Of a stretch of DNA of 64,000 nt, positions 7,735 to 22,992 are shown one piece after another (the stretch's first letter is position 1; each line of letters begins with the position of its first letter). The stretch is from Bacteroidota bacterium (lineage in GTDB: Bacteria > Bacteroidota > Bacteroidia > Bacteroidales > VadinHA17): contig JAUVKW010000001.1 of assembly GCA_030596025.1 (NCBI GenBank), positions 1,603-65,602 on the forward strand. Reading direction: 5' to 3'. The translations under genes and the position numbers were made by a program. The notes beneath the pieces were generated by a model, which had not been told where the DNA came from, made no database searches, and worked only from the letters and a program-made list of their open reading frames with translations.

Positions 7735-7829
7735 TTTACTATTTACTATAAGTTGAATTTTTTGCTTTTGACATTATTTTGATTATTCAATTTATAGGAT
7801 GAACCTTAAAGTTATTGCTATAAAGTTTG

Positions 7830-10800
7830 TTACTTTTTCAAGTAATAGTAAAATAAGGGGATGAAATACAAACTTACCATTGTACCAACAATCATACCTC
7901 CAATAACTGCCAATGCCAGTGGTTTCTGCAGATCGGCGCCAAGTCCGGTAATAAACAGAAATGGCAAGAGAGCAAGAATAGTGGTTAAACTGGTCATTAT
8001 TATTGGTTTAAACCTTCGTTGGCCGCCTACAACCAATGCTCTCATAAGAGAATAACCCTGGTTACGCAAACGATTAATGGTGTCGATTTTTAAAATTGAA
8101 TCATTAATAATGATACCGCTCATTACAATGATACCAATAAGGGACATTAAGTTTATGCCTGCTCCAAACAGCTTTAATAAAAGAAATACTCCGAAAACGT
8201 CAACAGGCACCTCTATTAGAACAATAAGAGGTAAAGAAAGTGATTCAAACTGTGAAGCCAGGATAAAATAAAGAAGCAAAAGAGAAATGCCAAGAATAAC
8301 CGCAAGCTGCTTTAAAAGTTTTTCACTTGTAAAGATGCTTCCACTAAAACCTGCCTCAAAATGCCGGTCTTCATTTAAAGTATTACGTATGCCTGTAATC
8401 ACTTTATCAGCATCGCTATTGTTTACCTGTATTGGCAAAGGGTAATATTCACCTTCAGGCCCGGCCACAATAATTTTTAAATCGTAGTTTTTTTCTACAC
8501 TAATAAGGCTGCGTAAGGGAATATTATCTCCATTGCTATTCATCACCATAGTTCTTGAAATAATATCATTTATCAATTTGGGCTTCTCACCCAAAACTAC
8601 CGGAATAAAATACTGGCTTCTTGTAATCAGCAATATTTCATTCTCACTCAAAGCACTTTTTATTTTTCGGTGCAATGCTTCAAAAGACACATCATAGGTC
8701 ATTAATTTCAGTGGATCTGCTTTCAATAAAAGATTTTCCTGCCAGGCTACCTGCTGTAATTGACTATAACTTATTTCTTTTCGCATTTTATCAATAGTCG
8801 TCTTCAGAAATATGTTATAATCAGGGCCAAAGTCTTCTGTTGAGCGCAAACGGGCAACCAGGGGCGGTTCATTATCTGAAAATATCAGGTTAAAAACATT
8901 TCCCGCCTCCTTAATATTTATTATTGCAATAGGATATTTACTATTTATGAATTGAGTAGCATCGTTAACAATTGCCTGTATTTCATCAGGAAATTCGGCT
9001 TTAACATAAACCAATGCTTCTGAAGCCGTTTCATCCGAGCTATAGTCAAGAAGAAACTGCTGTTCGCCAATCATACATGTAGATTGAACAGGCTTAACTT
9101 TTATATTTGCTAATAATTCCTGTATCCTTCTGTTATTTTCATCAACATGAATTCTCTCGTTCCATTCAATCCCTATCATTATTTCACTTCGGGAGAGTGG
9201 AGGGAAGCTGTCTTTTGGCAGTTTGAAATACAACAAAACAACACCCATTAGCATAAGAAAAAACAGTATCCATGCGTAGCCCTGATTTTTCATAATTAGC
9301 CGGAATCCCTTTTCGTATATTGCTTCATAATTCAATGTATTTATTCTGGAAAGAAGATTCTTTTTATTTGTTTCTAATTGTTTGTTGTAGAACAATTTAT
9401 AATAAGTGGGCAAAAGAGTTATTGACACAAGGAGTGAAACAATCAGTCCAATAGCAATAGCCATTGCCTGATCATAAAATAATGCACCGCTTATACCCTG
9501 CACAAATATCAAGGGTATAAAAACGGCGCATGTTGTAAGCACCGCACTTAACAAAGGCCTGAATACCTCATTTGTTCCTGACACACATGCCTGAATAAGA
9601 TGGCTTCCCCGTTCACGGTATTGAGTAATATTGTCAATTACTATTATCGAATTATCAATCATCATTCCAACACCCAGTATCAGACCTGATAATGAAATAA
9701 TATTTATCGAAATATCTGCCAGGTAAAATATAAGCAGAGATATAACAATTGAGGCGGGTATGGTAATTCCTACCAGAAAAGGAGCCCTGAAATCTTTTAA
9801 GAAAAAGAACATGATCAGGAATGCTAAAGATGCTCCAAACAAGAGGCTTTTACCAAGATTTGAGATGGTATAATCAAGCAAAAGGGTTTGATCTCTTGTT
9901 ATTTTAAATTCAATATGCGGATAATCTTCAATCAGATGGTCAATGAGTTGGTACAATTTATCTTTTAGCTCGCTCATTTGTGCATCAGACTGTTTAATAA
10001 CAGCCATTGTGATAGCTTCTTTCCCGTCGGATGTCACCATCCCCGTTCGCTTTTGAACATGTTCAATAACCCGGGCAATGCTTTTGAATTGAATAAGCCT
10101 GTCACCTGCTTTAATGTATATATTTTCAATATCGTGTTTGTTTTTCAGAGTTGAGGCAAATCTGATATTGTATTGGTATTGCCCGTCCCGAATGAGAAGA
10201 TTCCCCAGATTAATATTGTTCTTACGTATGGTTTGCTCAATGGTGGCCAAATTAATTCCCAGTGATTCCGCTTTTTTCATATCGGGTATGATCAGTAATT
10301 CGGGATAAACCTGTCCGCTGATATCTACCATTGCAACCTCGGGCAATTGTTCAATACGCTTACTTATAACCTGACCGGCAAATCTGCTTAATTCTATAAA
10401 CTTTTGAGAAACCGGGAAGATATTCTTTGATGTTTCCGGTTGTTGGTTTATGCTTTCTTGTCCATCGCTTAATGATTGTTCCCGTCCCTGTGCTCTGTGC
10501 CCTGTGCTCTGTGCCCTGTGCTCTTTCAATGTCAGGTTTAGATAAAATACCGGTATATCGGATGCACTGGCTTTAATAACCTCTGGCCGGTTTAATTTGC
10601 GTGGTAACCTGTTCATTGCCCTGTCGATTTTTTCATTTACTTCGATAAAGGCAAAATCAACATCAGTGCCATAGTCAAAATCAAGATGGATAAGGGCATT
10701 TCCATCACGCGTTTCACTTTTAATATCAGATAAATGTGAAACCTGCATCAGTTGTCTTCGTAAAGGTTTTACCACCGTGTTTTCCAATTCCCTTGCTGAA

Positions 10801-10955
10801 GTGTTTGATTCGCTAAAGTGAACGGTAATTTTCGGAATATCAATATCGGGCATTAAGGATACCGGTATCTGGAATGACGCAGCTATACCCAAAACCAATA
10901 TGGCAATAAAGATCATGGTGACGGCTATGGGTCTATTTATTAAAAACCTTACCAT
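7830..10955 (-). CDS. RND (AcrB-type) efflux transporter permease subunit
   Basis: 1041-aa ORF. N-terminus MVRFLINRPIAVTMIFIAILVLG is typical of AcrB-family pumps. TM4 motif GVGMMIDNSIIVIDNI. 12-TM, two-loop layout. Contains a low-complexity insert EHRAQSTGHRAQGREQS. Confidence 0.9.
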   Translation of the reverse strand: MVRFLINRPIAVTMIFIAILVLGIAASFQIPVSLMPDIDIPKITVHFSESNTSARELENTVVKPLRRQLMQVSHLSDIKSETRDGNALIHLDFDYGTDVDFAFIEVNEKIDRAMNRLPRKLNRPEVIKASASDIPVFYLNLTLKEHRAQSTGHRAQGREQSLSDGQESINQQPETSKNIFPVSQKFIELSRFAGQVISKRIEQLPEVAMVDISGQVYPELLIIPDMKKAESLGINLATIEQTIRKNNINLGNLLIRDGQYQYNIRFASTLKNKHDIENIYIKAGDRLIQFKSIARVIEHVQKRTGMVTSDGKEAITMAVIKQSDAQMSELKDKLYQLIDHLIEDYPHIEFKITRDQTLLLDYTISNLGKSLLFGASLAFLIMFFFLKDFRAPFLVGITIPASIVISLLIFYLADISINIISLSGLILGVGMMIDNSIIVIDNITQYRERGSHLIQACVSGTNEVFRPLLSAVLTTCAVFIPLIFVQGISGALFYDQAMAIAIGLIVSLLVSITLLPTYYKLFYNKQLETNKKNLLSRINTLNYEAIYEKGFRLIMKNQGYAWILFFLMLMGVVLLYFKLPKDSFPPLSRSEIMIGIEWNERIHVDENNRRIQELLANIKVKPVQSTCMIGEQQFLLDYSSDETASEALVYVKAEFPDEIQAIVNDATQFINSKYPIAIINIKEAGNVFNLIFSDNEPPLVARLRSTEDFGPDYNIFLKTTIDKMRKEISYSQLQQVAWQENLLLKADPLKLMTYDVSFEALHRKIKSALSENEILLITRSQYFIPVVLGEKPKLINDIISRTMVMNSNGDNIPLRSLISVEKNYDLKIIVAGPEGEYYPLPIQVNNSDADKVITGIRNTLNEDRHFEAGFSGSIFTSEKLLKQLAVILGISLLLLYFILASQFESLSLPLIVLIEVPVDVFGVFLLLKLFGAGINLMSLIGIIVMSGIIINDSILKIDTINRLRNQGYSLMRALVVGGQRRFKPIIMTSLTTILALLPFLFITGLGADLQKPLALAVIGGMIVGTMVSLYFIPLFYYYLKK
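10486..10524 (-). repeat. about 2.8 copies of a 14-nt tandem repeat (plus strand CCCTGTGCTCTGTG) inside the RND coding sequence
   Basis: Read directly. On the coding strand it reads GAGCACAGGGCACAGAGCACAGGGCACAGAGCACAGGG and encodes ..EHRAQSTGHRAQG.. within the first periplasmic loop region. Confidence 0.85.
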
Positions 10956-10983
10956 ATTTCCGTTTTGTTGTTTTTCTTAATCA

Positions 10984-11672
10984 CGTTTCTATGGTTTCTG
11001 TTGTTCCTGTAGTTTCTATGGTTTCTATGGTTTCTATGGTTTGAATTTAGTTCCCTTGAATTCTGATTTAGAAAGATACTGCATCATGTTGTTTGTTTTT
11101 CTACCCAAAACAATTGTTTTTTCTGAAAATTCATCAAATTCATTTTGAGATATATAATTTCGGTCGAATGCACGATAGAGCTGCGATCTGGTTTCTCCAC
11201 ATGACCCTTTTGCAATCGATAGAAAGTTTCGAAATTCTTTGTTCCCTCCGCGTTCGAATCCCTCTGCAATATTATCCATGGTTGATCCGCTTGAGGCTCT
11301 GATTTGATCTCTCAGACGAAAATCTTTTGAAAACTTTTCCTTTAAAGTAAGCTCGAAAACATCAATACTTAACTGCCTGGCAAACTGCCATATCTCCAAA
11401 TCCTCAAAACGTTTAACAGTTGCCATTATTTTTAAAAATTGATCTATGATCTTAAAAACATAAAAAAATATACACTAGGAACAACAGAAACAAGTTCCTA
11501 TTGTTTATGTTGTTCCTCTTGTTTGAATATAATACCTGGAAGGCTATCATATTTCCAATTTCTCAATTAGTTTTACCATTACCATTTGTTCCCAAAAGAA
11601 TTGTATTATTATAAAAAATCATTGAACATTAAACAACAGGAACTATAGGAACTAAATAAACCAAAGGAACAT
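10984..11672. repeat. inverted-repeat (rRNA-IVS-like) element enclosing the four-helix-bundle gene
   Basis: Left arm 10984-11040 is made of GTTTCTATGG/GTTGTTCCT words. Right arms at 11475-11525 and 11631-11672 carry the reverse-complement words. A perfect 15-bp inverted repeat, GTTTCTGTTGTTCCT (10994-11008) / AGGAACAACAGAAAC (11477-11491), brackets the ORF. Confidence 0.55.
11034..11426 (-). CDS. four-helix-bundle protein (23S rRNA intervening-sequence protein family)
   Basis: 130-aa ORF. FEDLEIWQFARQL...DQIRASSGSTMDNIAEGFERGGNKEFRNFLSIAKGSCGETRSQL matches the family pattern I recall (PF05635 type). Confidence 0.85.
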   Translation of the reverse strand: MATVKRFEDLEIWQFARQLSIDVFELTLKEKFSKDFRLRDQIRASSGSTMDNIAEGFERGGNKEFRNFLSIAKGSCGETRSQLYRAFDRNYISQNEFDEFSEKTIVLGRKTNNMMQYLSKSEFKGTKFKP

Positions 11673-12749
11673 TTATTTAATAATTACCTCCGACTCGTGC
11701 GCCAAATTCAGGTTACCTGAAATAATTACTGTATCTCCGGGAGCAAGTGTGCCGCCTTTATCAGGATGTGCCTGCACGGTATATGAATTGCTGTTTTCGA
11801 ATTCGGTTTGCACGTAAGTCCAGAAGGCTTGCCCGTTTTTGTATACAAACAATACTTCCTGGTTCTGGCGTAATACTACGGCTGACTTTGGTACAACCAG
11901 GCGGTCAGGCACCCTGGTTTCAAGCAACACTTCTACATTCATGCCTTCCATAAGCATACCTGTATTCTTAATAACTGCTTTAACTCTTATCATACCATTT
12001 TCTTCAACCACAGGATTAATTTCACAAACCTTTCCATAAACTATTTCATCATTTATAAAAGGAATAATTTTAACCTCTTTACGCAATTCAATTTCTTTTA
12101 ATTCAGTTTCAAGTACTGAAAACTCAACCTCAAATGCCGATTCATCAATAAGTGTGCAGAACTCTTCTCCGGGACTAACCACATCGTGTACTTTGTGTTT
12201 TAAATTAGCTATAACTCCCGTGAACGGGGCTTTCAAAATGGTGGAGTTGTAGTTAAACTTTGCCGTTTCAAGGCTGTTCATGGCATCTAATAGCCCCGAG
12301 CGTATTTTTGCGCTTTTCACAATGTTTTCAGGAGGTTGCTTATTTCCTGAATTATAACCCATTAGAACAATAACATCCTTGTATTCAACTTCGGCTTTTT
12401 GTATTTGAAACTCAGCTTTTTCGAGTTCCTGCTCCTGATTAAACCTGAAAAGGCGTGCTATAACCTGGCCCTTATATACTTTATCGCCATTTTTATAGGC
12501 CAGATATTCCAGTTCCTCACTAATACGAAACCGGAGGATGCTTTTTCTCAGGGCAATAAGCTTTCCATTGCTTACCAGTTCCTTACTGAAATCGGTTTCC
12601 TTAAGTACTATTACATCAACGGGGTTGCGTTCAGGACTATGGTTCAGTTTGCCGGTATCCTGATCCTCCCCGCCTTGATTTGTTGAGCATTGGCTAAAAA
12701 CAAGTATAAGTAAAAATATCAGTATGTTTCTCATATTCAATTTGGTCAA
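11673..12749 (-). CDS. efflux RND transporter periplasmic adaptor (membrane fusion protein)
   Basis: 358-aa ORF with lipoprotein-type signal LILVFSQCS. HlyD/AcrA-like layout with a coiled-coil region and LKAPFTGVIANL lipoyl-type motif. Lies upstream of the RND permease on the same strand. Confidence 0.8.
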   Translation of the reverse strand: MTKLNMRNILIFLLILVFSQCSTNQGGEDQDTGKLNHSPERNPVDVIVLKETDFSKELVSNGKLIALRKSILRFRISEELEYLAYKNGDKVYKGQVIARLFRFNQEQELEKAEFQIQKAEVEYKDVIVLMGYNSGNKQPPENIVKSAKIRSGLLDAMNSLETAKFNYNSTILKAPFTGVIANLKHKVHDVVSPGEEFCTLIDESAFEVEFSVLETELKEIELRKEVKIIPFINDEIVYGKVCEINPVVEENGMIRVKAVIKNTGMLMEGMNVEVLLETRVPDRLVVPKSAVVLRQNQEVLFVYKNGQAFWTYVQTEFENSNSYTVQAHPDKGGTLAPGDTVIISGNLNLAHESEVIIK

Positions 12750-12826
12750 CCATTTATAACATTGATAATAAAGATAACCTTTTTAGGAATTTTGACCGGA
12801 TAATCTGAAATAATATTACCAGAAAG

Positions 12827-13264
12827 CTATTCCTTTTTTACGTCACCATATATTTTAAGAGTTATAGGATTGGGCCTTGTATTAGCAATTACATTTATAC
12901 TTTTATGAAAGTGTCCAATATCACTTGCATTGTAGATTACTCTGATTGTGCCAGCCTTGCCAGGCTTAACTGTTTTCTTTGGCCATACAGGTAAAGTACA
13001 ACCACATGAGGCACGCACTGTATGAATTATTAAAGGGAATTCACCAGTATTGGTAAAACTAAATACAGCTTCTTTGGGTTGATTAAAGATTAAAGAACCC
13101 ATATTTATTGTTTTTGAATCAAACGAGATTGCAGTTGAGTTTTTTATTCCACCTGCTATTTCATATTTCTCATTATTTGAAAAGAACTGCAATAACAAAA
13201 ATAATGATATGATCACAAAGGCAGTAATTATTAACCAAAATAAGGTATTTTGTTTCTTTGACAT
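12827..13264 (-). CDS. DUF1573-like membrane-anchored protein
   Basis: 145-aa ORF with an N-terminal TM. Motif RASCGCT...PGKAGTIRVIYNA is characteristic of DUF1573 (from memory). Confidence 0.7.
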   Translation of the reverse strand: MSKKQNTLFWLIITAFVIISLFLLLQFFSNNEKYEIAGGIKNSTAISFDSKTINMGSLIFNQPKEAVFSFTNTGEFPLIIHTVRASCGCTLPVWPKKTVKPGKAGTIRVIYNASDIGHFHKSINVIANTRPNPITLKIYGDVKKE

Positions 13265-13576
13265 AGCAAACTAAATATGACTTATAAATCTATTGTTCTT
13301 CTTTTTTAAACAAGTTTAAGTAAATCTCCATCTCACGGTTTTTTGCGGCGCAATGACTTTAAACTTTTATCTTTTCCTACCAAACTCTGTCAGGTCTTCC
13401 TTCCCTGCAAGTTTTAGCGCAGACTCTGACAGGTTTTACTTTATTCCGGTTAATAAAAAGCAATCTTAAGAATTATTGTAAGCCATAATTACTTAAATCA
13501 TAAATCAGTGTTCCTTGTTCAGTATTCAATATGAAATTTACTAAACATGTTGCATAAATTTTCATTCATTATCCCA

Positions 13577-14623
13577 TTATTTGATTTTCATGAACATCCT
13601 GTTCCATCTTATTTTTCTTATACCCTTTTTATCAGGATTGAGTGAAAACAAAACAAAACATGCTTTACCAATAATGTGATCTTCGGGTACAAATCCCCAG
13701 TAGCGGGAGTCGTTTGAAGCATCACGGTTATCGCCCAGCATAAAATAGTAGTCTTGATTAAATCCATAATTACTGATAAGGGTATCATTTATCTTCCATT
13801 CCCCACTGTTATTTATTATGCCGGCATGTTCAAACATTTTCAATATCTTCTTATAAAGTATAACATCGTTTTCATCCGGCATTATTTTTAATTCCTTGCC
13901 CGGTATTATAAAAGGCCCCATATTATCGAGTGTCCATGAATAGCGTTCGTGCCATGGATAATACTGTGTTGTAAAGTCATCTGTTTTAATGCCGGAGGTT
14001 AAAGAATCAATACCTGCTAATCCGGATAATTGCTTTTTTTGACGTCTTGTAAGTTTTATCTCCCTAAAGCAGTCCTGTTTTGTTGTCCACCAGTCATAAA
14101 CCGGAATATTCAGGCTATCAGTTATTATACTAAAACTGCTGATACTATTATACCATACACGATAGACTTTTTTTGATTCAACAGGTGGAGACTGAAGCCG
14201 GTTTTTTATGAAAACGTCTGAATCAATAATCTGAAAAGTATCACCCGGCAAAGCTATGCAACGTTTAATAAATGTCTTGTTATTGTTATCAGGGAACTGA
14301 AAAACAATAATATCACCCCTGTTTATTTTCGAGAAGCCGGATAAACGTTTATATTTCCACCATGTAGTATCAGCTTTGGCTCTTGCTTTTTTATTCAGGG
14401 AAAACACAACATTCAGCCATGGTATCTCAAAAGGTGATCGGGGTAACTTCGCTCCGTAATTTAATTTACTGACAAGTATTTTATCGCCAGGTCGGAGTGT
14501 ATTTGCCATTGAACTTGAAGAAATAGTATAGATCTCAAACAGAAATATATGTAGGCATACAGCCAAAAGTATTATCCCTAAAAACAAGCATATATGATAA
14601 ATTACTTTTTGTATTCGGAACAT
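13577..14623 (-). CDS. lepB: signal peptidase I (paralogue 2)
   Basis: 348-aa ORF. Boxes SSSSMANTLRPGDKILV, FIKRCIALPGD, GDNRDASNDSRYWGFVPEDHIIGKA. Long blocks are near-identical to the 6480..7646 product, e.g. KLNYGAKLPRSPFEIPWLNV and INRGDIIVFQ. Confidence 0.9.
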   Translation of the reverse strand: MFRIQKVIYHICLFLGIILLAVCLHIFLFEIYTISSSSMANTLRPGDKILVSKLNYGAKLPRSPFEIPWLNVVFSLNKKARAKADTTWWKYKRLSGFSKINRGDIIVFQFPDNNNKTFIKRCIALPGDTFQIIDSDVFIKNRLQSPPVESKKVYRVWYNSISSFSIITDSLNIPVYDWWTTKQDCFREIKLTRRQKKQLSGLAGIDSLTSGIKTDDFTTQYYPWHERYSWTLDNMGPFIIPGKELKIMPDENDVILYKKILKMFEHAGIINNSGEWKINDTLISNYGFNQDYYFMLGDNRDASNDSRYWGFVPEDHIIGKACFVLFSLNPDKKGIRKIRWNRMFMKIK

Positions 14624-14812
14624 GACTATGAAGCAATAATAAACCGACAGCTTATATATTATAATTGGTTTTCATTTACTGTCTTAAAAACTTATATCAA
14701 AATACTCAAATTCTTCTTACCAATTTTGATAGTGAAAAAAGAATTTATCGAATACATTAAAAATAATTACAAAAAAATTTGCTCTTGACTTTTGTAATTC
14801 ACAATACCCAGT

Positions 14813-15850
14813 TCATTGTAAAATACTCAAATCATAAATTACAAAAGGCTGACGATCAAACCAATTTAAACCTATCAAAGTTTTGTCATTGTCTGTGATA
14901 ATTATATTGCTCAAACCAATATCCAGGTCAATCTCATACAATGCTTCTCCCTCCCATGAAAATACATGTAGTTTATTTCCAATTCCTGCAATTGCAGTTA
15001 TGAAATCCTTACCACAATAAATAGCATAGATAAATTTGGAGGTAGTAAATACATCAATATAGTGAAAAACAGTTTTATCATCCAAAAAACTATGTGAATC
15101 TTTTGAAAATATTGGTTCTATCTGGTTTTCCGGCTGTATTGAAGTCCTCAAAGATAAGTCATTGTTATATATATCTATTTGCTTAAAATACCGTAAAGCA
15201 CTGACAAATACCTCCCGGGGATAATTGTAATCATTTATAGCATAGAATATTTGTCCTAAATGTAATTGATTTTTTGTTTCGCGTTGCTTAAAAAACAGAT
15301 CATCAACAGTATAGTTTATCTTTCTTGTTTCCAGATTAAAATTAAATATTCTAAATTTCCCTGATGTGGTAGAACCAATAATGGTATTGCTGTTCAAATA
15401 AAGAAGGTTAAAAGGAATTATTAACTCAACCGGATAAACAATTTTCGTATTAGGTTCATAATAAGGAACGCTGATCATACTATCAAGATCATACTTTTTT
15501 GTGATGTATCTATCTGTCACAACCAAATGATTATTATGCAAGCGTTTACTAAGATCAGGCCCCTGAAATTCGCCAGGGCCCTTCCCCTTGATGCCAAAGG
15601 ATTTCATAAGTTTATAGTTATTTCTGATAACTACATGAAATAATTTCTCCGTTTTGAAATCAGATACCACGATCAATGAATCTAAAAGAACCATTTTCCT
15701 TGGTTCAAGGAAATGGTCCACAGGTCCTACCTTTGTTCCATTGAGTTTAAAGGTTTTATTAAAACCTGAATAATACTTAATTTTTTTATCAGTGGTCTTG
15801 CATGATGATATAAGCGCTAAAATTATTATACTAAAAATTATTTTTTTCAT
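14813..15850 (-). CDS. 6-bladed beta-propeller lipoprotein (BF3164-like family)
   Basis: 345-aa ORF with lipoprotein signal ILALISSC. Motif FGIKGKGPGEFQGP, and a C-terminal blade ..LHVFSWEGEALYEIDL.. ending ..FVIYDL. Family recalled from Bacteroidales annotations. Confidence 0.6.
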   Translation of the reverse strand: MKKIIFSIIILALISSCKTTDKKIKYYSGFNKTFKLNGTKVGPVDHFLEPRKMVLLDSLIVVSDFKTEKLFHVVIRNNYKLMKSFGIKGKGPGEFQGPDLSKRLHNNHLVVTDRYITKKYDLDSMISVPYYEPNTKIVYPVELIIPFNLLYLNSNTIIGSTTSGKFRIFNFNLETRKINYTVDDLFFKQRETKNQLHLGQIFYAINDYNYPREVFVSALRYFKQIDIYNNDLSLRTSIQPENQIEPIFSKDSHSFLDDKTVFHYIDVFTTSKFIYAIYCGKDFITAIAGIGNKLHVFSWEGEALYEIDLDIGLSNIIITDNDKTLIGLNWFDRQPFVIYDLSILQ

Positions 15851-16355
15851 CAGTCTTGAATTTTTTAATTAGGTTTTTTTGTTTCCTTGCTACTTTAGGA
15901 TTTAAATGAGGTGATCCACAGTTTTTAATTATACTATCAGGTCCAACGAGGACACAGTTACTTTGTTTTAGTTTTAAAATACCAAGTTCATTCATTTTAA
16001 TAAACTTATCTGCCTGATCATATAGTATAGGAAACTCAAATGAATTAATTTCATTTATATGGGATTGTGCAAATTCAGAATCCTGTCCGGTTAGAATAAC
16101 CACAAACTGTGTTTCTTCCATAGATCCTTGCTGTAAATAAGCATCTAATCTATATATTTCTTCAATACATGTCGGACAGCTTGCGTTTAAACACAGCAAA
16201 ACATTAAAGCTATTTGATTTCTTATGCTTACAACTATTATATTGTTTAAGACTATCGATGGGATAAATTATTTTCTTACCTACCAGGTAGTCTGTAGAAG
16301 TATTATCAGTACAACCAAGTAATAATATTACAATAAGAAAGTAAACTTGTTTCAT
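15831..16355 (-). CDS. thioredoxin-fold (TlpA/redoxin-like) CxxC lipoprotein
   Basis: The track ORF is 15831..16412. I prefer the internal Met at 16355, which gives the lipoprotein signal MKQVYFLIVILLLGC. The CxxC motif sits in FNVLLCLNASCPTCIEEIYRL (strand-CxxC-helix layout). The gene overlaps the downstream propeller gene by 20 nt. Confidence 0.55.
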   Translation of the reverse strand: MKQVYFLIVILLLGCTDNTSTDYLVGKKIIYPIDSLKQYNSCKHKKSNSFNVLLCLNASCPTCIEEIYRLDAYLQQGSMEETQFVVILTGQDSEFAQSHINEINSFEFPILYDQADKFIKMNELGILKLKQSNCVLVGPDSIIKNCGSPHLNPKVARKQKNLIKKFKTDEKNNF

Positions 16356-16387
16356 AGAATGAACATATTTATTATTATTTTTATATA

Positions 16388-16601
16388 CTATTCCGGTTCC
16401 TCCTGGTTGCATAAATCTTTACCCTGATAATTCCAAGACTGACACATACAATTACAACAAACCTTAGCCAGGCTCTGTACAAGTCCTATAACCCTGGCAC
16501 CAACACTCAGAAGCTTGTACAGGCTTTGGTTTAAGGATTGATAAACTAATTCCAATAATTGTAACAAGAATTGCTAATCCAAAATAAATTTTCTTTTTCA
16601 C
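16388..16601 (-). pseudogene. frameshifted or truncated paralogue of the 71-aa Cys/Trp-rich peptide gene (not in the ORF track)
   Basis: Hand translation from GTG at 16601 gives VKKKIYFGLAILVTIIGISLSILKPKPVQASECWCQGYRTCTEPG, with a stop at 16464-16466. The +1 frame continues KVCCNCMCQSWNYQGKDLCNQEEPE, with a stop at 16388-16390. It aligns with the 16700..16915 product at both the signal (..ISLLTLQPKPAEAAWCSWGYRS) and the tail (QCVACNCLQWDHTGRTSCPDGPIQE). It has a 2-nt deficit relative to that paralogue around CCTGGCTAAGG. Confidence 0.6.
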
Positions 16602-16663
16602 AACTAATTAATTTTGCTATTAAACAATTTCTATAAAGTTAAAACTGCAAATTATTTAATAGT

Positions 16664-16688
16664 GTGAGGGACTAAATTAATCCCTCAC
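16664..16688 (-). terminator. stem-loop 11 nt downstream of the 71-aa peptide gene (possible terminator or attenuator)
   Basis: GTGAGGGA-ctaaattaa-TCCCTCAC, an 8-bp perfect stem, followed on the minus strand by A/U-rich sequence. There is no clean U-tract. Confidence 0.4.
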
Positions 16689-16699
16689 AAAATTCTATT

Positions 16700-16915
16700 T
16701 TACTCTTGAATTGGTCCATCAGGGCAGCTAGTTCTACCTGTATGATCCCATTGTAAACAATTACAAGCAACACATTGTCCTGGCCATGATGTAGTAGACC
16801 TATAACCCCATGAACACCAAGCAGCTTCCGCTGGTTTTGGCTGAAGAGTTAATAAACTAATTGCAATTATTACAACAAGAGTTGCTATGCCGATAAATAT
16901 TTTCCTTTTTTCCAT
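16700..16915 (-). CDS. small secreted Cys/Trp-rich peptide (71 aa precursor)
   Basis: Signal peptide with a predicted SPase I site, PKPAEA|AW. The roughly 40-aa mature part AWCSWGYRSTTSWPGQCVACNCLQWDHTGRTSCPDGPIQE has 5 Cys and 4 Trp. A paralogue lies directly downstream. Confidence 0.65.
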   Translation of the reverse strand: MEKRKIFIGIATLVVIIAISLLTLQPKPAEAAWCSWGYRSTTSWPGQCVACNCLQWDHTGRTSCPDGPIQE

Positions 16916-16985
16916 AACAAAAAATTTTATATTATTAATAATTTTCAGCTTTATTTAAAAACATATTAAATCAATAAGTATCTTT

Positions 16986-17388
16986 GCTCCCGAAAGGGGA
17001 GCTACCAGAACTGGAGTCTGAATACAAATGGTTGAAGGTTATGGTGTGTTTTCCCTTTCACTATTATTAATTGTTTCTAAAGTTTCTATTGTTCCTCTGG
17101 TTCCTGTTGTTTCTATGGTTTCTTTGATTTCTGCTGTTTTCTCATTATTTCCCGGCACATCATGTTTTTAGTATATGAAATTTTATCAAATCACAGACAA
17201 AAGGAACTACAGAAACCATAGAAACAACATGAACTTTTTTTTATTCATTTAATCATTATTTCTTATGGTTTATATTACTTAATCCGGTGAGAATTGGATT
17301 TATTCCCAAAAAAGATATTTATTTTTCAACATTTTGATAGTTTAGATAGACTCTAAATATAAGGTAGGGATGATCAGTAAGATATGGA
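16986..17388 (-). repeat. conserved non-coding element, copy A (upstream module + word hairpin + about 110-nt peptide-proximal module)
   Basis: Two modules, 16986-17095 and 17275-17388, match 19530-19640 and 19725-19838 with 5 and 7 mismatches by eye. The central hairpin arms are TGTTGTTTCTATGGTTTCT (17105-17123) and AGAAACCATAGAAACAACA (17211-17229). The element fills the whole gap between the upstream gene stop (17411) and the peptide start (16915). Confidence 0.8.
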
Positions 17389-17410
17389 CTACACTTGGTT
17401 TATTAAATAT

Positions 17411-17920
17411 TTAGTTTACAAATAGTGAAAACAAATGGCTTAAAGATCTGTCATCATTAATTTCATTTTTTTCTGTAATACTGTTTCCTTGTATTACAAA
17501 ATAATACGGGTATTCTAGAATTGCTTCTGGAAAGAACGCTTTTCCAATATTATCTTCTGTATCAATATATATTTCATTACAATAGTCCATTTTTTCATCC
17601 AGATAATACTGCATAGTTACTATATCTATAGTATTTATCACACATAGTAGCTGAATGTTAGATCGCTTTTTTTCAGGTTCTACCTCAGCCAATTCTTCTT
17701 TTATTGCATCTATCTGACTTAAACAAAATCCACAAATTTCAGGGTAGTAGATTAATACGGTAGTATGATCTTGTGGTATATTAAGCGATCTAATCTCATA
17801 GACCTGATTTTTCCTAATAACTGTAAAACTCCATGAACCAGGTATATTGAAGGACTCTGATGTGCAACCTGTTACCACAATAAATATTGAGAGCAATAAT
17901 TGAAATATAGCTCGTTTCAT
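17411..17920 (-). CDS. thioredoxin-fold CxxC lipoprotein
   Basis: 169-aa ORF with lipoprotein signal SIFIVVTGC. CxxC motif in TVLIYYPEICGFCLSQIDAIKEEL. The start overlaps the stop of the upstream propeller gene (shared base at 17920). Confidence 0.5.
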   Translation of the reverse strand: MKRAIFQLLLSIFIVVTGCTSESFNIPGSWSFTVIRKNQVYEIRSLNIPQDHTTVLIYYPEICGFCLSQIDAIKEELAEVEPEKKRSNIQLLCVINTIDIVTMQYYLDEKMDYCNEIYIDTEDNIGKAFFPEAILEYPYYFVIQGNSITEKNEINDDRSLSHLFSLFVN

Positions 17921-18990
17921 TATAGTTTTACTTCATATTTAACCATTCTGAGCGAATTTGTTTCGTTCTTATCATCCTCAACAATAGCATAAATAATATG
18001 GATATTACCATCTCTTTTTACAGTATATAGAACTATTGGGAAATCAAATGAAAGATTTGTGATATGCTTACCTTGCCAATTATATACTTGCATTATATTT
18101 GGGTAGTTTATCTTATTATTCAACAGATCATTCAATTTTCCTTTTCCAAAAACAGAAAAAATAAATTTGTTACTTACCGCACAACCCATAAAACCAATGA
18201 TACTACCTTTACAAGCTGCAGTTGACCAGTGTTTACCCATACGAAAAACTTCAAAACATGGTGGGAACTCTGGTTGGTAATTTGGGTTTATCCTTAAAAA
18301 AGAATCTCCCTTTTTCTCATAAATTTCAATGAGATCGCTTTTGGGAATAACTGTAACAAATAGTGGTTTACTTGGATGAGAACAGATCTTTCCATCATAG
18401 CCATCAGCAAGTTGAATATTGCTCATCTCTCTATTAAACTCGCTATCCGGGAAATCACCAAAAGTATATAGCAATTTCCCCTTATTACTGAAAAGACCAA
18501 AACGTCCATGTTTAAACGTTCCTGTCACTATGAAATAGGATTTATTAAAAGGAACAAATTGTATTGGCCAGCCCTCGCTTCGATCTACAATAAATAAGCT
18601 TTTACTATTGTTTTGACCTTTATTGATATCATTCAATGAAATAGAATTATAGTCCCCTTTCATTATATCATAAGAATTTAAAGATCTATTACTGAAATTA
18701 AAGGATGGTGAAACGGCAGATAACATTTCACCAGGGCCTCTTCCTTTTATGCCAAATGAAATACATTTTCCGTGTGTCAAATCAATTAAATCAAAAAAAA
18801 TATCAGTTTGTCCGTTCAAAATAATAAACTTGTTATCACCAGCTAGTAATAAACCGTGTGGATCTTTAATATCCTCAGGTGGGATATTTATTTCAGTATG
18901 TTCTAAATGAATAAGCTGAATCTCATTTTTCTTACTATTTGAACAAGAGATAAATAAAAATAAAAGTAAAAAATGTATGAATGATTTCAT
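17920..18990 (-). CDS. 6-bladed beta-propeller lipoprotein (BF3164-like family)
   Basis: The track ORF extends to 19065. The internal Met at 18990 gives the lipoprotein signal MKSFIHFLLLFLFISC. Motif FGIKGRGPGEMLS. C-terminal blade MQVYNWQGKHITNL. Confidence 0.6.
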   Translation of the reverse strand: MKSFIHFLLLFLFISCSNSKKNEIQLIHLEHTEINIPPEDIKDPHGLLLAGDNKFIILNGQTDIFFDLIDLTHGKCISFGIKGRGPGEMLSAVSPSFNFSNRSLNSYDIMKGDYNSISLNDINKGQNNSKSLFIVDRSEGWPIQFVPFNKSYFIVTGTFKHGRFGLFSNKGKLLYTFGDFPDSEFNREMSNIQLADGYDGKICSHPSKPLFVTVIPKSDLIEIYEKKGDSFLRINPNYQPEFPPCFEVFRMGKHWSTAACKGSIIGFMGCAVSNKFIFSVFGKGKLNDLLNNKINYPNIMQVYNWQGKHITNLSFDFPIVLYTVKRDGNIHIIYAIVEDDKNETNSLRMVKYEVKL

Positions 18991-19193
18991 CTTAAAATAA
19001 TGGTTATCAGCATAATAAGAGACTGCTTTCAATATTAATACTTTAAAAACATTTGTAATTTTCATTATTGTTCTTTTTGATTTTCTTATTTCTATTTTGA
19101 ATATGTTTCTTTATGAAATCTTCATCAACTTGTAAATGCTTACAAAATATCCTTTTCTCAACCTGTAAATTTCTCTATAGTGAAATAAGAATT

Positions 19194-19224
19194 AGAAACA
19201 GCTAATCCTAGATTAGCTGTTTCT
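19194..19224 (-). terminator. perfect 14-bp stem-loop 12 nt downstream of the 78-aa peptide gene (possible terminator or attenuator)
   Basis: AGAAACAGCTAATC-cta-GATTAGCTGTTTCT, followed on the minus strand by AAUUCUUAUUUCA. Lies between the peptide gene and the propeller gene. Confidence 0.5.
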
Positions 19225-19235
19225 AACGAGCATTA

Positions 19236-19472
19236 TTACAATGGTTCTGGTGCCCATTCTCCATTATCCTGATAATCAATTGAACCATCTTCGTTATACC
19301 ATGTACAAACTTCAGTAGATATATTTGCACATATTCTTCCAGCACCAGACTGTGCCAGGGCTTTATTATTATCTATAAATGATTCTTTTTCAGGAGAAAA
19401 GTTCATATTCATCCCAATACCTAGCATGAATAAAAAACCAAGGAAAATTAATCTGACAATATTCTTTTTCAT
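19236..19472 (-). CDS. small secreted peptide, NVEALA-like (78 aa precursor)
   Basis: N-terminal hydrophobic segment LIFLGFLFMLGIGM, then ..FIDNNKALAQSG.., which resembles the NVEALA motif of the small Bacteroidales protein family of 71-86 aa (from memory). The tail GAGRICANISTEVCTWYNEDGSIDYQDNGEWAPEPL has 2 Cys. Confidence 0.6.
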   Translation of the reverse strand: MKKNIVRLIFLGFLFMLGIGMNMNFSPEKESFIDNNKALAQSGAGRICANISTEVCTWYNEDGSIDYQDNGEWAPEPL

Positions 19473-19529
19473 AATTTTATTTATTAAAAATTAATAATTT
19501 GTTTTAATTACAATTTTGATATTAATTTT

Positions 19530-19838
19530 GCCCCGGAAAGGGGAGCTACCAGAACTGGAGTCTGAATACGAATGGTTGAAGGTTATGGTGTGTTTTCCCT
19601 TTCACTATTAATAAATGTTTCTAAAGTTTCTATTGTTCCTATGGTTCCTACAAAAGGAACTACAGGAACAATAGGAACTCTCCTTTTAACATTCTATCAT
19701 TTGCTCATTCCATCATTGTCTCCATTACTTAATCCGGTGAGAATTGGATTTATTCCCAAAAATGAGATTTATTTTTCAACATTTTGATAGTTTAGATAGA
19801 TCCTAAATATAAGGTGGGGGTAATCAGTAAGATATGGA
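19530..19838 (-). repeat. conserved non-coding element, copy B
   Basis: Same two modules as copy A. The central hairpin is reduced to CTATTGTTCCTATGGTTCCT (19630-19649) / AGGAACTACAGGAACAATAG (19655-19674): 20 positions with 1 mismatch, 1 G-U pair and a 5-nt loop. The track ORF 19572..19787 is a translation of this repeat. Confidence 0.8.
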
Positions 19839-19841
19839 GAC

Positions 19842-20150
19842 CTATTTCAAAGCGGCTTCCAGGTTATAAACAAAAATTTTATCAATCTCCACCCTATCAA
19901 TACAATACAGCTTCTTATCGTCCTTTGTTACATCAAATGTGAATATTGGATTATTCATATTTAGCTTAACCACAGGATTTCCATCCCAATCCCATATCTC
20001 TATGGAAGGGTTGGTTTCAAGCAATTTATCGGAATGCTCATTCATGCACATCGCATAAATGTATTTATTTGAAACTTTTACTACACGATAATAAATCATA
20101 CTGGTACCTCTTTTCCGTTTAGGATCAAAGATGTCTTTATTTATCATCAT
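19842..20150 (-). pseudogene. orphan C-terminal fragment of a 6-bladed beta-propeller gene
   Basis: The 102-aa ORF has no signal peptide. ..IEIWDWDGNPVVKLNMNNPIFTFDVTKDDKKLYCIDRVEIDKIFVYNL parallels the last blades of the 345-aa and 381-aa propellers (..VFSWEGEALYEIDL.., ..VYNWQGKHITNL..). Its stop abuts the end of element copy B. Confidence 0.5.
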
Positions 20151-20181
20151 AATTACCTCCTTTTCAAGGACTCCGGAATTA

Positions 20182-21477
20182 TTATAAATTCGATTTCAAA
20201 TTTGCAAGTACTAAAATATGATTATCGTCTTCCTTTAATGTTTTGTTTAATTGCCTGTGCTTCTCTTTTTGGCCGGGATATATAGCTGATCTGTTTTGAA
20301 ACTCTTCTGAATCAAGGTACATTTTAAAATCCATGGCCGTGATGAAATAGTATGCCACGGTATCATTCGAATATTTCGGCTTAAAATCAGGGCCTGCATC
20401 TAAATCATTTATAAAACCATAATCCTCTCCATTATTAATTAGGGCTGTTCCTGTCCCTGTTTTTTTATTTACAAACATACAAGCCTGTTCTGTTTCATTC
20501 TTGCTTTTTGGCGACCAAAGTGTACCAAACCGGATAAAAATATAATCTGTAGATTCATTCACACCGGTCCAGTAGCAATTTTCCGGGATAGATTTTGACG
20601 ACTTTCGTTCAGGAATCTGGTCTGTTGGGAGTTTGTGTTCTTTTAAGTCGATAAAATACTTCGGAACAATGTTGTTTTCGCTATCATAGGTATAAACAGT
20701 ATCATTATACCAGCCCTTCATGTGTAATTTTTCATCGCTCCAATAAAATGAATTTTGCCCCCAATACGATACCATATAACGCGAGCTTTCATTACTGTTC
20801 CAGAAAATGTGGTTTTTCACACCCTGTATTGTATCGCCATGGTTATCGATCTCTATAAAAACATAGGGTTCATTTCCATTATGAGGTTCACTAAAACTAA
20901 CTAACAAACTATCCCGGCACCAGGTAATGTATCCCCTTCCGACACCTTCAAATTTTATGGTTTTTACATAGTCGCCGTTAAATGAGTAAACCAGAATTTT
21001 TCTGGTCCAATTGGTATGGATGTAAATTAGTTTATTTTTTTCATCAATACTGAACTTGCGCATTAACTCGTATTCTTTTGGTCCTCGCCCTTTAGAACCA
21101 ATCTGGCGAACGAATTTTCCATCGCGAGAGAATTGAGTAAGTAAGTGTGATCCATTGTGTCTTATAAAAATATATTTTTGAGTAATATATGCATCCAATA
21201 TACTTCCAACTAAAGACTTTGGCGTTTTCTCCAAAGGGATGTAGTCAAGGCTTCCGGCAATCTCAGAAATCATGACTTCCCTTTTTTGTTTAAGGATTCC
21301 CGGGAAATCAATTGTCAGAAATTGTGAATTCTGTAATAACTGATTATCAGTTTGCTTTCCGTCATTTTTTTCTTTTTCATTTTTTGAGTGACATCCCCAA
21401 ATAGATAGAATCAAAATAATTAAAAGGCTTTTTAGGAAATAGGTAGTTTTTTTCATATTAATATTGTTCCGCTTCAA
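20182..21477 (-). CDS. 6-bladed beta-propeller lipoprotein (longer subfamily)
   Basis: 431-aa ORF with lipoprotein signal LILSIWGC. Motif IGSKGRGPKEYELM. Repeated Y/W-rich blade pattern. Confidence 0.55.
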   Translation of the reverse strand: MKRNNINMKKTTYFLKSLLIILILSIWGCHSKNEKEKNDGKQTDNQLLQNSQFLTIDFPGILKQKREVMISEIAGSLDYIPLEKTPKSLVGSILDAYITQKYIFIRHNGSHLLTQFSRDGKFVRQIGSKGRGPKEYELMRKFSIDEKNKLIYIHTNWTRKILVYSFNGDYVKTIKFEGVGRGYITWCRDSLLVSFSEPHNGNEPYVFIEIDNHGDTIQGVKNHIFWNSNESSRYMVSYWGQNSFYWSDEKLHMKGWYNDTVYTYDSENNIVPKYFIDLKEHKLPTDQIPERKSSKSIPENCYWTGVNESTDYIFIRFGTLWSPKSKNETEQACMFVNKKTGTGTALINNGEDYGFINDLDAGPDFKPKYSNDTVAYYFITAMDFKMYLDSEEFQNRSAIYPGQKEKHRQLNKTLKEDDNHILVLANLKSNL

Positions 21478-21675
21478 AATTCCTCTGAATTTTTTATGGC
21501 TGTTTTAGTACTCATAAGAAAATATACCGCTATTCAATGCAATTTTAACTATGAATATAAGCAAAAACAGATTAGAAGATTATTTAACTTAAAAACTAAC
21601 TTAGGGCTTACGGAAAGGGAAAGTATCAAAATGTGCCGTGCAGTTACAATATCTTGACAGAAAATAATAATTGTT

Positions 21676-21836
21676 TGAATGAATGGGTGAATGGGTGAAT
21701 GAGTAAATGCGTGAATCATACCAATTTATTATTTTAACATTCTCACATTTTAGCATTCTATCATTTCAACATTCCATCATTTTAACATTCTGTCATTTTA
21801 GCATTTTAGCATTTTAGCATTCCTTCATTCCATACC
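21676..21836. repeat. word-repeat inverted block (TGAATG words, then CATTC/CATTTTAGC words)
   Basis: 21676-21718 reads TGAATGAATGGGTGAATGGGTGAATGAGTAAATGCGTGAATCA. 21735-21836 holds degenerate CATTCT/CATTTTAGC units, including 3 tandem GCATTTTAG copies. The two blocks are roughly reverse-complementary in word content. Confidence 0.7.
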
Positions 21837-21993
21837 TTTTGAGACAGCCCCTGAATTAATTTCGCCTTACAAGGTAATGAACTGCGGGTCGGGTTTTTTG
21901 TTCGATTATTAATTCTTACTTTTAAAACTTGATAGGGTTAACCTGGATCAAATCCAGTTTAATGCAAACATTAATCATCAAAAAATCCAAATT

Positions 21994-22992
21994 ATGAATA
22001 GCTATCCTTTCACAACTTTAATTGAGTTTATAATTGCAAAACAGGCTGATATCATGGAAGCCAAAGGAGAATTTTCAAGGATTTTATACTCCCTTGGTGT
22101 TGCAGCCAAAATGATAAATAAAAAAGTAAATAAGGCCGGATTAGTAGATATTCTTGGAGCTGCCGGAAGTACGAATATACAGGGAGAAGATCAGAAGAAA
22201 CTGGATGTTTTTGCTGATGAACAGCTTATTGGATCTTTCAAGGCTTCTGGTGAGGTTTGTGGTGTTGCCACAGAGGAAAATGATGAAATAGTGGTTTTTG
22301 ACCATGAAATGTCAAAAGATGCAAAATACATTATTTGTATGGATCCCTTAGATGGGTCCTCAAACATAGACGTGAATGTTTCCATTGGTACAATATTTTC
22401 AATTTACAGGAGAATCACTCCCAGAGGAAGTAAACCTGAACTAAAAGACTTTCTGCAAAAAGGATCCAGGCAGGTTGCAGCGGGTTACATTATTTATGGA
22501 TCTTCCACAATGCTTGTATACACTACAGGCAACGGGGTTATTGGTTTTACACTAGATCCTTCACTGGGAGAATTTTGTTTGTCCCACCCGGCTATCAAAA
22601 CACCACCGGGGGAATTATATTCAATTAATGAAGGTAATTATTTGGCTTTCCCTGAAGGGGTTAAAAGATTCTTGAAATATTGCCAGGAAAAAAAGGAAGA
22701 TGAAAACAGGCCATATACCTCCAGGTATATAGGTTCACTAGTTGCAGATTTTCACAGGAACCTGCTAAAGGGAGGAATCTTTCTTTATCCTCAAACCTTA
22801 AGTAATCCAAACGGAAAATTAAGACTTTTGTACGAATGCAATCCTATTGCATTTATTGCAGAGCAGGCTGGCGGAAAGGCTAGTAGTGGGAAAACCAGAG
22901 TCCTGGATATATTGCCTGAATCCCTGCACCAAAGAGTCCCGTTTTATACTGGATCTGCAAATCTAATTGATAAATTGGAAGAGTTTCTATAA
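21994..22992 (+). CDS. fbp: fructose-1,6-bisphosphatase class 1
   Basis: 332-aa ORF. Motifs [51 protein letters not shown]. Confidence 0.9.

Follow-up and report, generated by a model that had tools for sequence, protein, structure and literature searches.

The stretch of DNA analysed here, 64,000 nucleotides (nt) from a bacterium of the phylum Bacteroidota (hereafter the window), carries at positions 14813-21477 tandem cassettes in which genes for small Cys-rich peptide precursors stand beside genes for a six-bladed propeller lipoprotein and a thioredoxin-like CxxC lipoprotein. The same triad recurs in close relatives, on dozens of metagenome contigs and in other genomes, and both cassettes of the window are preceded by a conserved leader open reading frame (ORF) of 19 codons that ends in a GC hairpin. 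We propose that the region is part of a chromosomal island making small exported disulfide-bonded peptides. The full pathway set out below is, in our judgement, somewhat probable, and the peptides would most likely serve in antagonism or signalling outside the cell.

Cassette layout and recurrence of the gene triad

All nine ORFs of the region (A to I; Table 1) are carried by the minus strand. An earlier note, made from the letters of the window, had placed them at the same coordinates, and rechecking the ORFs upheld their positions, their strand and two overlaps between neighbouring genes: E and F share one base, 17920, which belongs to the stop codon of F, and A and B overlap by 20 nt (15831-15850). 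Lipoboxes and AxA-type cleavage sites can be discerned by reading the translated ORFs, and the start of F is probably M25, at 18993. Cassette 1 comprises peptide gene G, propeller gene F and CxxC gene E; cassette 2 comprises peptide genes D and C, CxxC gene B and propeller gene A. Where the note went astray was in taking the cassettes as self-contained, since it missed the leader ORF and its hairpin as well as the signal peptidase I (S26), DUF1573 and RND efflux genes that recur with them.

The proposal that peptide, propeller and CxxC protein form a recurring module is borne out by loci in close relatives, in Aquimarina, in Odoribacter, at metagenome locus L022, in a Candidatus Cloacimonetes metagenome-assembled genome and on contigs carrying the leader motif described below, with proteins as little as ~20% identical. 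Loci L001-L004 pair a TolB_like propeller with a 171-aa CGFC protein and also carry an orthologue of G, and in L007-L012 two or three D-type peptides are followed by a CPxC protein and then a propeller. Aquimarina gracilis combines a propeller and an overlapping CSNC protein with five tandem paralogous Cys-rich peptides; in two Odoribacter genomes a propeller gene overlaps that of a CGVC protein and is joined by a peptide gene; L022 holds three peptide/propeller cassettes (TolB_like or DUF4221), one of them with a CGSC protein; and the Cloacimonetes genome encodes a DUF5128-like propeller and a CSGC protein along with two peptides. Next to the cassette of this last genome (L072, 3350-6006) lie further genes in a row, for a 50-aa peptide that lacks a signal sequence, for a radical SAM/SPASM enzyme and for a DUF5128 propeller, so that the propeller family partners two different peptide-maturation chemistries.

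Word-indexed protein searches returned few relatives (8 matches for E, 4 for B and 15 in another search), and the breadth of the system was therefore taken from DNA: a pattern derived from the leader core, CAGNNNTGGTAGCTCCCNNNNNNGGRGCAA, was searched in metagenome contigs and matched 48 of them. Scanning a collection of genome contigs with the propeller alignment gave only 5 loci, the window species apparently lying outside that collection. On motif contigs with enough downstream sequence, an ORF of 60-133 aa begins 50-220 nt after the motif in 38 of 41 cases; where contigs run longer, an ORF of 343-420 aa comes next in 27 of 28, and on still longer ones a CxxC ORF of 154-220 aa follows in 19 of 24, mostly at most 25 nt from the preceding gene or overlapping it. 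Recurring across so many contigs, this gene order exceeds chance. Within the window, the 22% identity of propellers A and F, the lack of similarity between E and B and the different gene orders indicate that the two cassettes are old.

A conserved leader ORF upstream of the cassettes

The window has two copies, 91-95% identical, of a stretch of about 300 nt, one ahead of the peptide genes of each cassette; the stretch includes the leader, whose consensus is MKGK..I.L.P..FRLQFW-stop. The G of the leader stop codon is the first base of a hairpin of the general form GCUCCC, a loop of 3-7 nt and GGGAGC, after which a conserved CAAAGAUA follows. In relatives whose proteins are just 68-81% identical the leader core is nearly invariant. 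Gene I stands without a peptide gene, and a decayed leader copy lies upstream of it at ~21611-21640 (repeat D10, a 76% copy of the core at 21611-21631).

Of 43 distinct sequences, 42 are free of stop codons over the 19 codons before a fixed TGG-TAG, against 0 and 13 in the other two frames, and in 32 of them the codon exactly 19 codons upstream is a start codon (25 ATG, 6 GTG and 1 TTG). These sequences encode 26 distinct leader peptides with a common N-terminus, M-K/R-G-K/E, and a common C-terminus, F-R/K-L-Q-x-W. Synonymous alternation is frequent (GGG/GGA, TTC/TTT, CTC/CTT, CCA/CCG), making up 41% of single-base codon differences, and an A occupies position -3 of the start in 91%, which fits the Kozak-like context of Bacteroidetes initiation sites (PMC6847099). 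These patterns show that the conserved core is a reading frame under coding constraint, and we suggest that translation of the leader ORF may control downstream expression, for example by stalling or attenuation.

It might instead be argued that the upstream element works as a DNA or RNA site and is not a translated leader, being either an opposite-strand promoter or a hairpin that binds protein or RNA. Read on the opposite strand, the conserved CAAAGATA becomes TATCTTTG, which fits the Bacteroidetes -7 box TAnnTTTG; nucleotide conservation extends 18 nt beyond the leader stop; and GAAAGGG, where the ORF begins, can pair with CCCUUUC downstream of its stop, a feature kept in three sequences whose frame differs. 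We nevertheless think such a site improbable, because each coding signature tells against it: the stop-free frame, the start fixed at 19 codons and only ever ATG, GTG or TTG, the synonymous alternation and the initiation-like A at -3. An antisense transcript would moreover oppose every island gene, and the constraints on frame, length and start codon make the opposite-strand TATCTTTG box in particular the less likely reading. The GAAAGGG/CCCUUUC helix itself is paired in 83.6% of cells and is the predicted optimum in 9 of the 43 sequences; it is plausible, and we do not claim it, as its covariation is no greater than that of controls.

No Bacteroidetes -7 box was found on the forward strand at a fixed distance upstream of the leader, and a sigma-70 promoter scan is uninformative for this phylum. 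Scanning 14000-22500 against Rfam at E<=1 gave no family, only chance microRNA matches on an inverted repeat of GRAAC units. The leader covariance model gave no match at the Aquimarina, Odoribacter, Alistipes or L019-L023 loci; since it finds one clade only, the leader is clade-specific and the cassette is not. At L022 a different clade has its own conserved element, with (CTTTT)n tracts, upstream of each peptide gene (2904-3041 and 4610-4741), and one L022 cassette ends in a protein-kinase-like gene. Having an upstream element of its own may therefore be a general trait of such cassettes, the sequence differing by clade.

The leader resembles TnaC, which stalls at its stop codon (PMC8429421), and the 19-residue ErmCL leader (PMC5499644) in being a short conserved upstream ORF whose C-terminus is its most conserved part and which has RNA structure at its end. 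It differs from both in that it shares no sequence similarity with them and its hairpin lacks a U-tract, and stalling would in its case be a prediction. Our literature search found no such leader ORF described for Bacteroidia, of which this may be the first leader-peptide regulator. Bacteroidia do not use Shine-Dalgarno sequences, and the leader would for that reason inform on translation-based control in the class.

Peptide precursors

Forty-nine cassette peptides were collected from the window and related loci, and all have a Lys-rich and hydrophobic N-terminal segment. A spacer of ~5 to >30 residues follows and ends in small-x-small, often AxA and often in an NxEALA-like context; our cleavage-site heuristic makes the sites small-x-small by construction, and many of them read as textbook A-x-A (AEA, ALA, AQA, AKA, AFA). 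The cores beyond the site are 31-50 aa long in most peptides and hypervariable, with only three Cys alignment columns conserved or nearly so. An even number of Cys is found in 41 of 48 cores, most often four (21) or six (15).

Among the window precursors, G shows the Lys-rich N-terminus, the hydrophobic segment, a spacer and a site between NNKALA and Q, and its orthologue in L001 (68 aa in L001-L004) retains NNKALA, both Cys and WYNxDGSID. In D the predicted site lies between KPAEA and AW, before a core with four Trp, and paralogues or orthologues of D are found in L007, L008 and L011. Gene C, which had been read as a frameshifted paralogue, is indeed one: deleting any single base near 16465-16482 restores an ORF of 69 aa, which identifies a 1-nt frameshift that could be real or an assembly error, and the orthologue in L011 is intact. 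After the predicted site there are two Cys in G, five in D and eight in repaired C. The view that the peptides are mutually unrelated stands for G, which is of a different type, and fails for D and C, which are clear paralogues. D and G are both called as genes in a public collection. At the Odoribacter locus UMGS628 (L016, 7683-7872) the NVEALA-like peptide gene upstream of the propeller/CxxC pair likewise seems frameshifted; decay seems to be faster in peptide genes than in the genes beside them, unless the peptide genes assemble poorly.

Membership of the window peptides in the NVEALA family did not hold up, as they gave no match at E<0.1 to Pfam NVEALA (PF14055), and we do not file them as members. 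The family is matched by 4 of the 49 cassette peptides (best 7.8e-8), and the peptide of the Odoribacter triad scores 6.6e-5, below the cut-off. Before the cleavage site G reads NNKALA and D reads KPAEA, and many motif-contig peptides have NIEALA, NMEALA, SEALA or KLEALA. Because related cassette peptides match the family, we place those of the window in the same loose group.

CxxC proteins

The only invariant feature of the 26 partner proteins encoded by the third ORF is CxxC itself, and just 3 of the 26 match Redoxin or AhpC-TSA, all weakly. E gave no Pfam match in the profile search. Its AlphaFold model (built on eight homologues, predicted local distance difference test (pLDDT) 85) shows a thioredoxin fold in which C63-x-x-C66 sits at the N-terminal end of a helix (64-79) that follows a strand (53-59), and Foldseek relates it with probability 1.0 to Etrx1/2, ResA, DsbE and SdbA, which are membrane-anchored or lipoprotein thioredoxins. 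B scores 23.9 bits against AhpC-TSA (4e-5; cut-off 26) and 23.0 bits against Redoxin (7.5e-5; cut-off 26.6), below both cut-offs, and its homologues bear precomputed PF00578/PF08534 matches. Both CxxC proteins are thus thioredoxin-like, as they had been read earlier, E by its model and B by its weak matches to redoxin families. We considered E and B as paralogues and rejected this, as BLAST finds no similarity between them; they are treated as independent recruits of one fold.

Profile scans of the window region revealed no DsbB-, VKOR- or DsbD-like genes. In the bacteroidetocin (class IIf) clusters of Bacteroidales, a cluster-encoded thiol oxidoreductase is needed for full activity, and Bacteroides lacks a general disulfide-forming machinery (PMC6671954). 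The organism studied here, as a relative of Bacteroides, presumably lacks one as well.

Propellers and their likely role

A and F match Pfam TolB_like (PF15869) with 59 and 69.5 bits, above the cut-off of 29.2, and I matches DUF5128 (PF17170) with 92.6 bits (cut-off 22.9; 3.5e-26) as well as DUF4934. The model of F (pLDDT 77, predicted template-modelling score 0.78) has six groups of four strands, that is, six blades, and its best fold matches are six-bladed propellers: NHL domains, PAL, Drp35 and the uncharacterised Bacteroides fragilis BF0058, at template-modelling (TM) scores of ~0.5. NHL-repeat chains match F by sequence too. These results confirm the six-bladed propeller lipoproteins that had been predicted, and an orphan propeller fragment is confirmed in H, a C-terminal TolB_like piece that scores 29.0 bits, just under the cut-off of 29.2, over profile positions 234-295 and is 28% identical to the C-terminal end of F. 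On the motif contigs the large ORFs fall into TolB_like (13), DUF5128 (11), DUF4221 (6) and DUF4934 (5).

Alignment of seven triad propellers left the NHL motif SFGxKGxGPGE and a handful of scattered residues as the only invariant positions, and no invariant His/Asp/Cys catalytic constellation was found across them. Intact propellers also persist on their own. L019-L021 hold an orthologue of A, 80% identical and adjoining fbp-mfd (gene at 10001-11062 in L019), at a locus without peptide or CxxC gene and with only a 47-aa RND permease remnant nearby, and orphan propellers occur in Alistipes genomes as well. Judging from L019-L021, the place of the island on the chromosome appears to be fixed, and the island appears to undergo gain, loss or erosion there.

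We lean towards specific binding of the peptide, for hand-over or self-protection, as the role of the propeller, in preference to catalysis. This is because no catalytic constellation is invariant, the sequence relatives of known structure are NHL binding domains, any of three propeller families can fill the same place in the cassette, intact orphans persist (I, L019-L021, Alistipes) and the same family also pairs with a radical SAM maturase; the propellers furthermore diverge as quickly as the peptides, as the distance between A and F illustrates, which we count in favour of binding. Lantibiotic producers have NisI-type lipoprotein immunity proteins, and orphan copies are typical of immunity genes. 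Like NisI, the propeller is a membrane-tethered lipoprotein encoded beside the peptide gene that could bind the peptide on the outer side of the cytoplasmic membrane, and its orphans persist; its fold, however, is unrelated.

Were the propeller instead a catalytic maturation enzyme of the periplasm (a lyase, cyclase or cross-linker), the cassettes would resemble those for ribosomally synthesised and post-translationally modified peptides, with the CxxC protein managing disulfides around that chemistry. The fold matches include two six-bladed propeller enzymes that act on peptides, PAL (3fvz) and streptogramin B lyase (2qc5), the Cloacimonetes DUF5128 propeller comes directly after a radical SAM/SPASM maturase and its 50-aa precursor, and the odd number of Cys together with the high Trp content of D-type cores could mean a Cys cross-link other than a disulfide. 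We regard catalysis as unlikely all the same, given the missing constellation, TM scores of ~0.5 to enzymes that are no better than those to non-enzymatic NHL domains, the intact orphans without peptide genes and the exchange of three propeller families in one cassette position.

Binding could also be permanent, with the peptides serving as envelope subunits or ligands that stay on the propeller, like the Cys/Trp-rich light chain of methylamine dehydrogenase, which attaches to a propeller heavy chain with the aid of the thioredoxin-like MauD. In that enzyme MauA is a single conserved subunit, MauB has seven blades, and MauG and MauE are required. The window shares with mauA/mauB/mauD the grouping of a small Cys/Trp-rich exported polypeptide, a propeller and a thioredoxin-like accessory; besides this likeness, each propeller has one peptide family with which it co-diversifies, D-type cores are rich in Cys and Trp, and propeller and CxxC genes are translationally juxtaposed. 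Yet the window propeller has six blades rather than seven, no MauG- or MauE-like genes occur in the window region, and the peptides are multi-copy, with up to five divergent paralogues per propeller and hypervariable cores in which only the Cys positions are kept. The terminator-like hairpin that follows the peptide gene points to an excess of peptide and not to 1:1 stoichiometry, and an efflux pump recurs beside the cassettes. Permanent subunits are thus distinctly improbable to us, and specific binding, for hand-over or self-protection, remains the role that we prefer.

Genes accompanying the cassettes

Downstream of the cassettes and on the same strand lie the further genes of the island (Table 1). 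The two S26 paralogues have the Ser/Lys motifs SSSM, KRCIALPGD and GDNRDASNDSRYWG visible in their sequences. With tblastn, S26 homologues were found on 11 of the 48 motif contigs (183 kb in total) and RND homologues on ~9. Among 81 neighbour ORFs on motif contigs, Peptidase_S26 is the commonest family (8), before DUF5128 (7), DUF1573 (5), Wzy_C (5) and ACR_tran (3). As a genome normally holds few S26 genes, S26 is strongly enriched near the cassettes.

Table 1. Positions of genes, leader elements and repeats of the island in the window.
Feature	Position	Strand	Description
RND permease 2	3195-6359	-	36% identical to RND gene beside Aquimarina cassette
Signal peptidase I (S26) paralogue b	6480-7646	-	139 bits vs cut-off 47; 49% identical to paralogue a
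RND permease 1	7830-10955	-	Homologues abut leader motifs in L031, L046, L069
Inserted four-helix-bundle gene	11034-11426		23S rRNA IVP-type, TIGR02436; between RND adaptor and first RND permease
RND periplasmic adaptor	11673-12749	-	Profile search
DUF1573 protein	12827-13264	-	SCGCT motif; Pfam
Signal peptidase I (S26) paralogue a	13577-14623	-	TIGR02227, 141 bits vs cut-off 47
A	14813-15850	-	345 aa, TolB_like propeller lipoprotein
B	15831-16358	-	175 aa counted from inner Met, CPTC thioredoxin-like lipoprotein
C	16388-16601	-	Frameshifted peptide, paralogue of D
Short stem-loop	16664-16688	-	3' of D gene
D	16700-16915	-	71-aa peptide precursor
GC hairpin, cassette 2	16986-17002	-	GCUCCC-CUUUC-GGGAGC; overlaps leader stop codon
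Leader ORF, cassette 2	17002-17061	-	Same peptide as cassette 1 copy; covariance model 98.9 bits
Repeat D3	17071-17388	-	Upstream region duplicated between cassettes, 91% identity; holds inverted GRAACnnnn arrays
E	17411-17920	-	169 aa, thioredoxin-fold lipoprotein, CGFC motif
F	17920-19065	-	381 aa, TolB_like NHL-type six-bladed propeller lipoprotein, lipobox FISC
Terminator-like hairpin	19191-19227	-	Between G and F genes; 17 pairs, T-rich tail (inverted repeat I19)
G	19236-19472	-	78-aa peptide precursor
GC hairpin, cassette 1	19530-19546	-	GCUCCC-loop-GGGGC, from G of leader stop; then conserved CAAAnnUA
Leader ORF, cassette 1	19546-19605	-	19 codons + TAG, GTG start, encodes (M)KGKTHHNLQPFVFRLQFW; covariance model 87.7 bits
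H	19842-20150	-	102 aa, C-terminal remnant of TolB_like propeller gene
I	20182-21477	-	431 aa, DUF5128/DUF4934 six-bladed propeller lipoprotein, lipobox IWGC

In L028, L046 and L048 a DUF1573 gene comes directly after the cassette. This family has selenoprotein members in which UGC replaces CGC (PMC9312934), which indicates that the CGC motif is redox-active. An RND adaptor directly follows the cassette both in L001 (58% identity) and in Aquimarina (36% identity); the Aquimarina cassette sits between a TlpA-like/S26 pair and an adaptor/RND pair whose proteins are 31-36% identical to those of the window. The RND proteins are closer to multidrug-type than to heavy-metal families, and the adaptor also matches a CzcB-type family weakly. 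No ABC transporter or C39 peptidase gene was found among the ORFs of 3195-21477, and no radical SAM/SPASM gene in the window region.

With two thiol-redox protein types (CxxC and DUF1573 CGC) and RND pumps in one island, and an adaptor that recalls CzcB, the genes could be read as an envelope stress system in which Cys-rich peptides buffer thiol, oxidant or metal stress and the pump clears the load. We hold this very improbable: core hypervariability and diverged paralogues in tandem would be unexpected in a buffer, multidrug-type families fit the RND proteins better than heavy-metal ones, and the cognate propellers would be left unexplained.

Beyond the island, a SecA gene on the plus strand (725-3106) adjoins RND permease 2, and one motif contig also has SecA; this adjacency is probably conserved synteny rather than a functional link. 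TPR-repeat proteins (4 of 81) and the O-antigen-ligase-like Wzy_C (5 of 81) are recurrent cassette neighbours in L024-L071. In B. thetaiotaomicron, BT0662 and BT0664, genes of the O-antigen ligase family and of a six-bladed propeller two loci apart, are in an iron-responsive list (PMC10434189). A connection with peptide glycosylation is possible.

A proposed export and maturation pathway

In the pathway that we favour for the disulfide-bonded peptides, the precursor would cross the inner membrane by Sec and be cut at its AxA site by the S26 paralogues of the island. The CxxC protein of the cassette would then oxidise or isomerise the peptide, possibly helped by the CGC motif of DUF1573, and the cognate propeller would hold it until the adjoining adaptor and RND pump probably expel it from the periplasm. 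Two elements would set the amounts made: the hairpin after each precursor gene, which would keep peptide transcripts above enzyme transcripts, and the leader ORF, which may set expression through the behaviour of the ribosome at its stop codon and hairpin.

Several points weigh against this proposal. Expression, secretion and activity are predicted from the genes, as any immunity or toxicity would be. The motif contigs represent related organisms, not phylogenetically independent samples. None of the RND proteins reaches an NCBIfam cut-off, no gene for an outer-membrane channel was seen next to the window pump, and the 81 neighbour ORFs include a single OEP gene. In many precursors 20-30 residues separate the hydrophobic segment from the AxA site, which is unusual for substrates of signal peptidase I, and D-type cores have an odd number of Cys, five. 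The case for a binding propeller, finally, is drawn from alignments of ~20% identity in which no catalytic residues are conserved.

A wider reading would be that an undescribed class of ribosomal peptides exists in Bacteroidota and Cloacimonadota (FCB-group). Such peptides would be exported by Sec and disulfide-knotted in the periplasm, with a cognate NHL-propeller lipoprotein for each peptide family, dedicated S26 paralogues, a thioredoxin-like oxidase with DUF1573, RND secretion and a 19-codon nascent-peptide leader, its Trp-stop placed in a hairpin, that senses a signal; the propeller superfamily would be a general peptide-handling partner. We put this forward tentatively and consider it doubtful in its entirety.

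What the proposal offers is a single testable pathway for TolB_like, DUF5128, DUF4221, DUF4934, NVEALA-like and DUF1573 proteins, all of them found in Bacteroidota, one that names a likely processing enzyme, folding enzyme and export route. The leader DNA motif retrieves dozens of new hypervariable Cys-rich peptides, which are candidate antimicrobials or signals, and the Odoribacter example, from a human-gut assembly (UMGS), brings the system nearer to experiment.

Comparison with known systems

The closest characterised system is that of the bacteroidetocin clusters, whose precursors have a 15-aa double-glycine leader and undergo cleavage and export by an ABC transporter with a C39 peptidase; a protein with five transmembrane segments is encoded there too (PMC6671954). 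Both concern small Bacteroidetes peptides with at least two Cys and a cluster-encoded thiol oxidoreductase, which in the window is predicted from the genes. The window precursors, in contrast, have Sec-type hydrophobic N-termini and AxA sites and no double-glycine leader, and their partners are S26 peptidases, a propeller lipoprotein, DUF1573 and RND pumps, with no ABC/C39 gene. We would place the region, on present gene content, as a ribosomal peptide cluster whose leader element is new, as is its set of genes for export and maturation.

In databases, NVEALA small proteins co-occur with BF3164, TolB_like or DUF5128 propellers in Bacteroidales, with no function assigned to them. The propeller families are the same here, and some of the cassette peptides match NVEALA, whereas the CxxC partner, S26, DUF1573, RND and leader ORF are not part of that description. 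Our literature search on NVEALA, BF3164 and the DUF families of the cassettes yielded nothing relevant.

Heat-stable enterotoxins of E. coli are exported by Sec, oxidised by DsbA and passed through a tripartite pump with TolC, which for STII is MacAB. The route proposed here would follow the same course of cleavage, periplasmic disulfide formation and efflux by an adaptor-using pump; unlike the enterotoxins, which use a housekeeping peptidase, Dsb proteins and an ABC-type pump, the window has paralogues that we propose as dedicated, an RND-type pump and, in addition, a propeller. NHLRC2-type proteins combine a thioredoxin-like domain and an NHL six-bladed propeller in one fused chain. The same two folds are coupled in the window as adjacent or overlapping genes, encoding, by contrast, two separate membrane-tethered polypeptides next to a peptide gene, and the sequences give no sign of common descent beyond the folds. 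The enterotoxin route, NHLRC2 and MauA/B/D serve us as working analogies and not as memberships.

Repeats in the window

Arrays of a 9-nt unit, GRAACnnnn, number 12 in the window against 0 expected and lie at 10985-11034, 11470-11680, 17071-17234 and 19615-19679. They flank the inserted four-helix-bundle gene and also form 'empty' inverted-repeat hairpins upstream of both leaders. We considered the GRAAC repeats as part of the regulatory element and rejected this in favour of a separate repeat, since they flank the inserted gene and are absent upstream of the cassette in L001. The same inserted gene is present in L001, which suggests a small mobile or repeat element tied to the island. Upstream of I and beside the decayed leader core, ~13 tandem copies of the 8-nt unit CATTYTAK occupy 21706-21841, a tract that could be slippage-prone.

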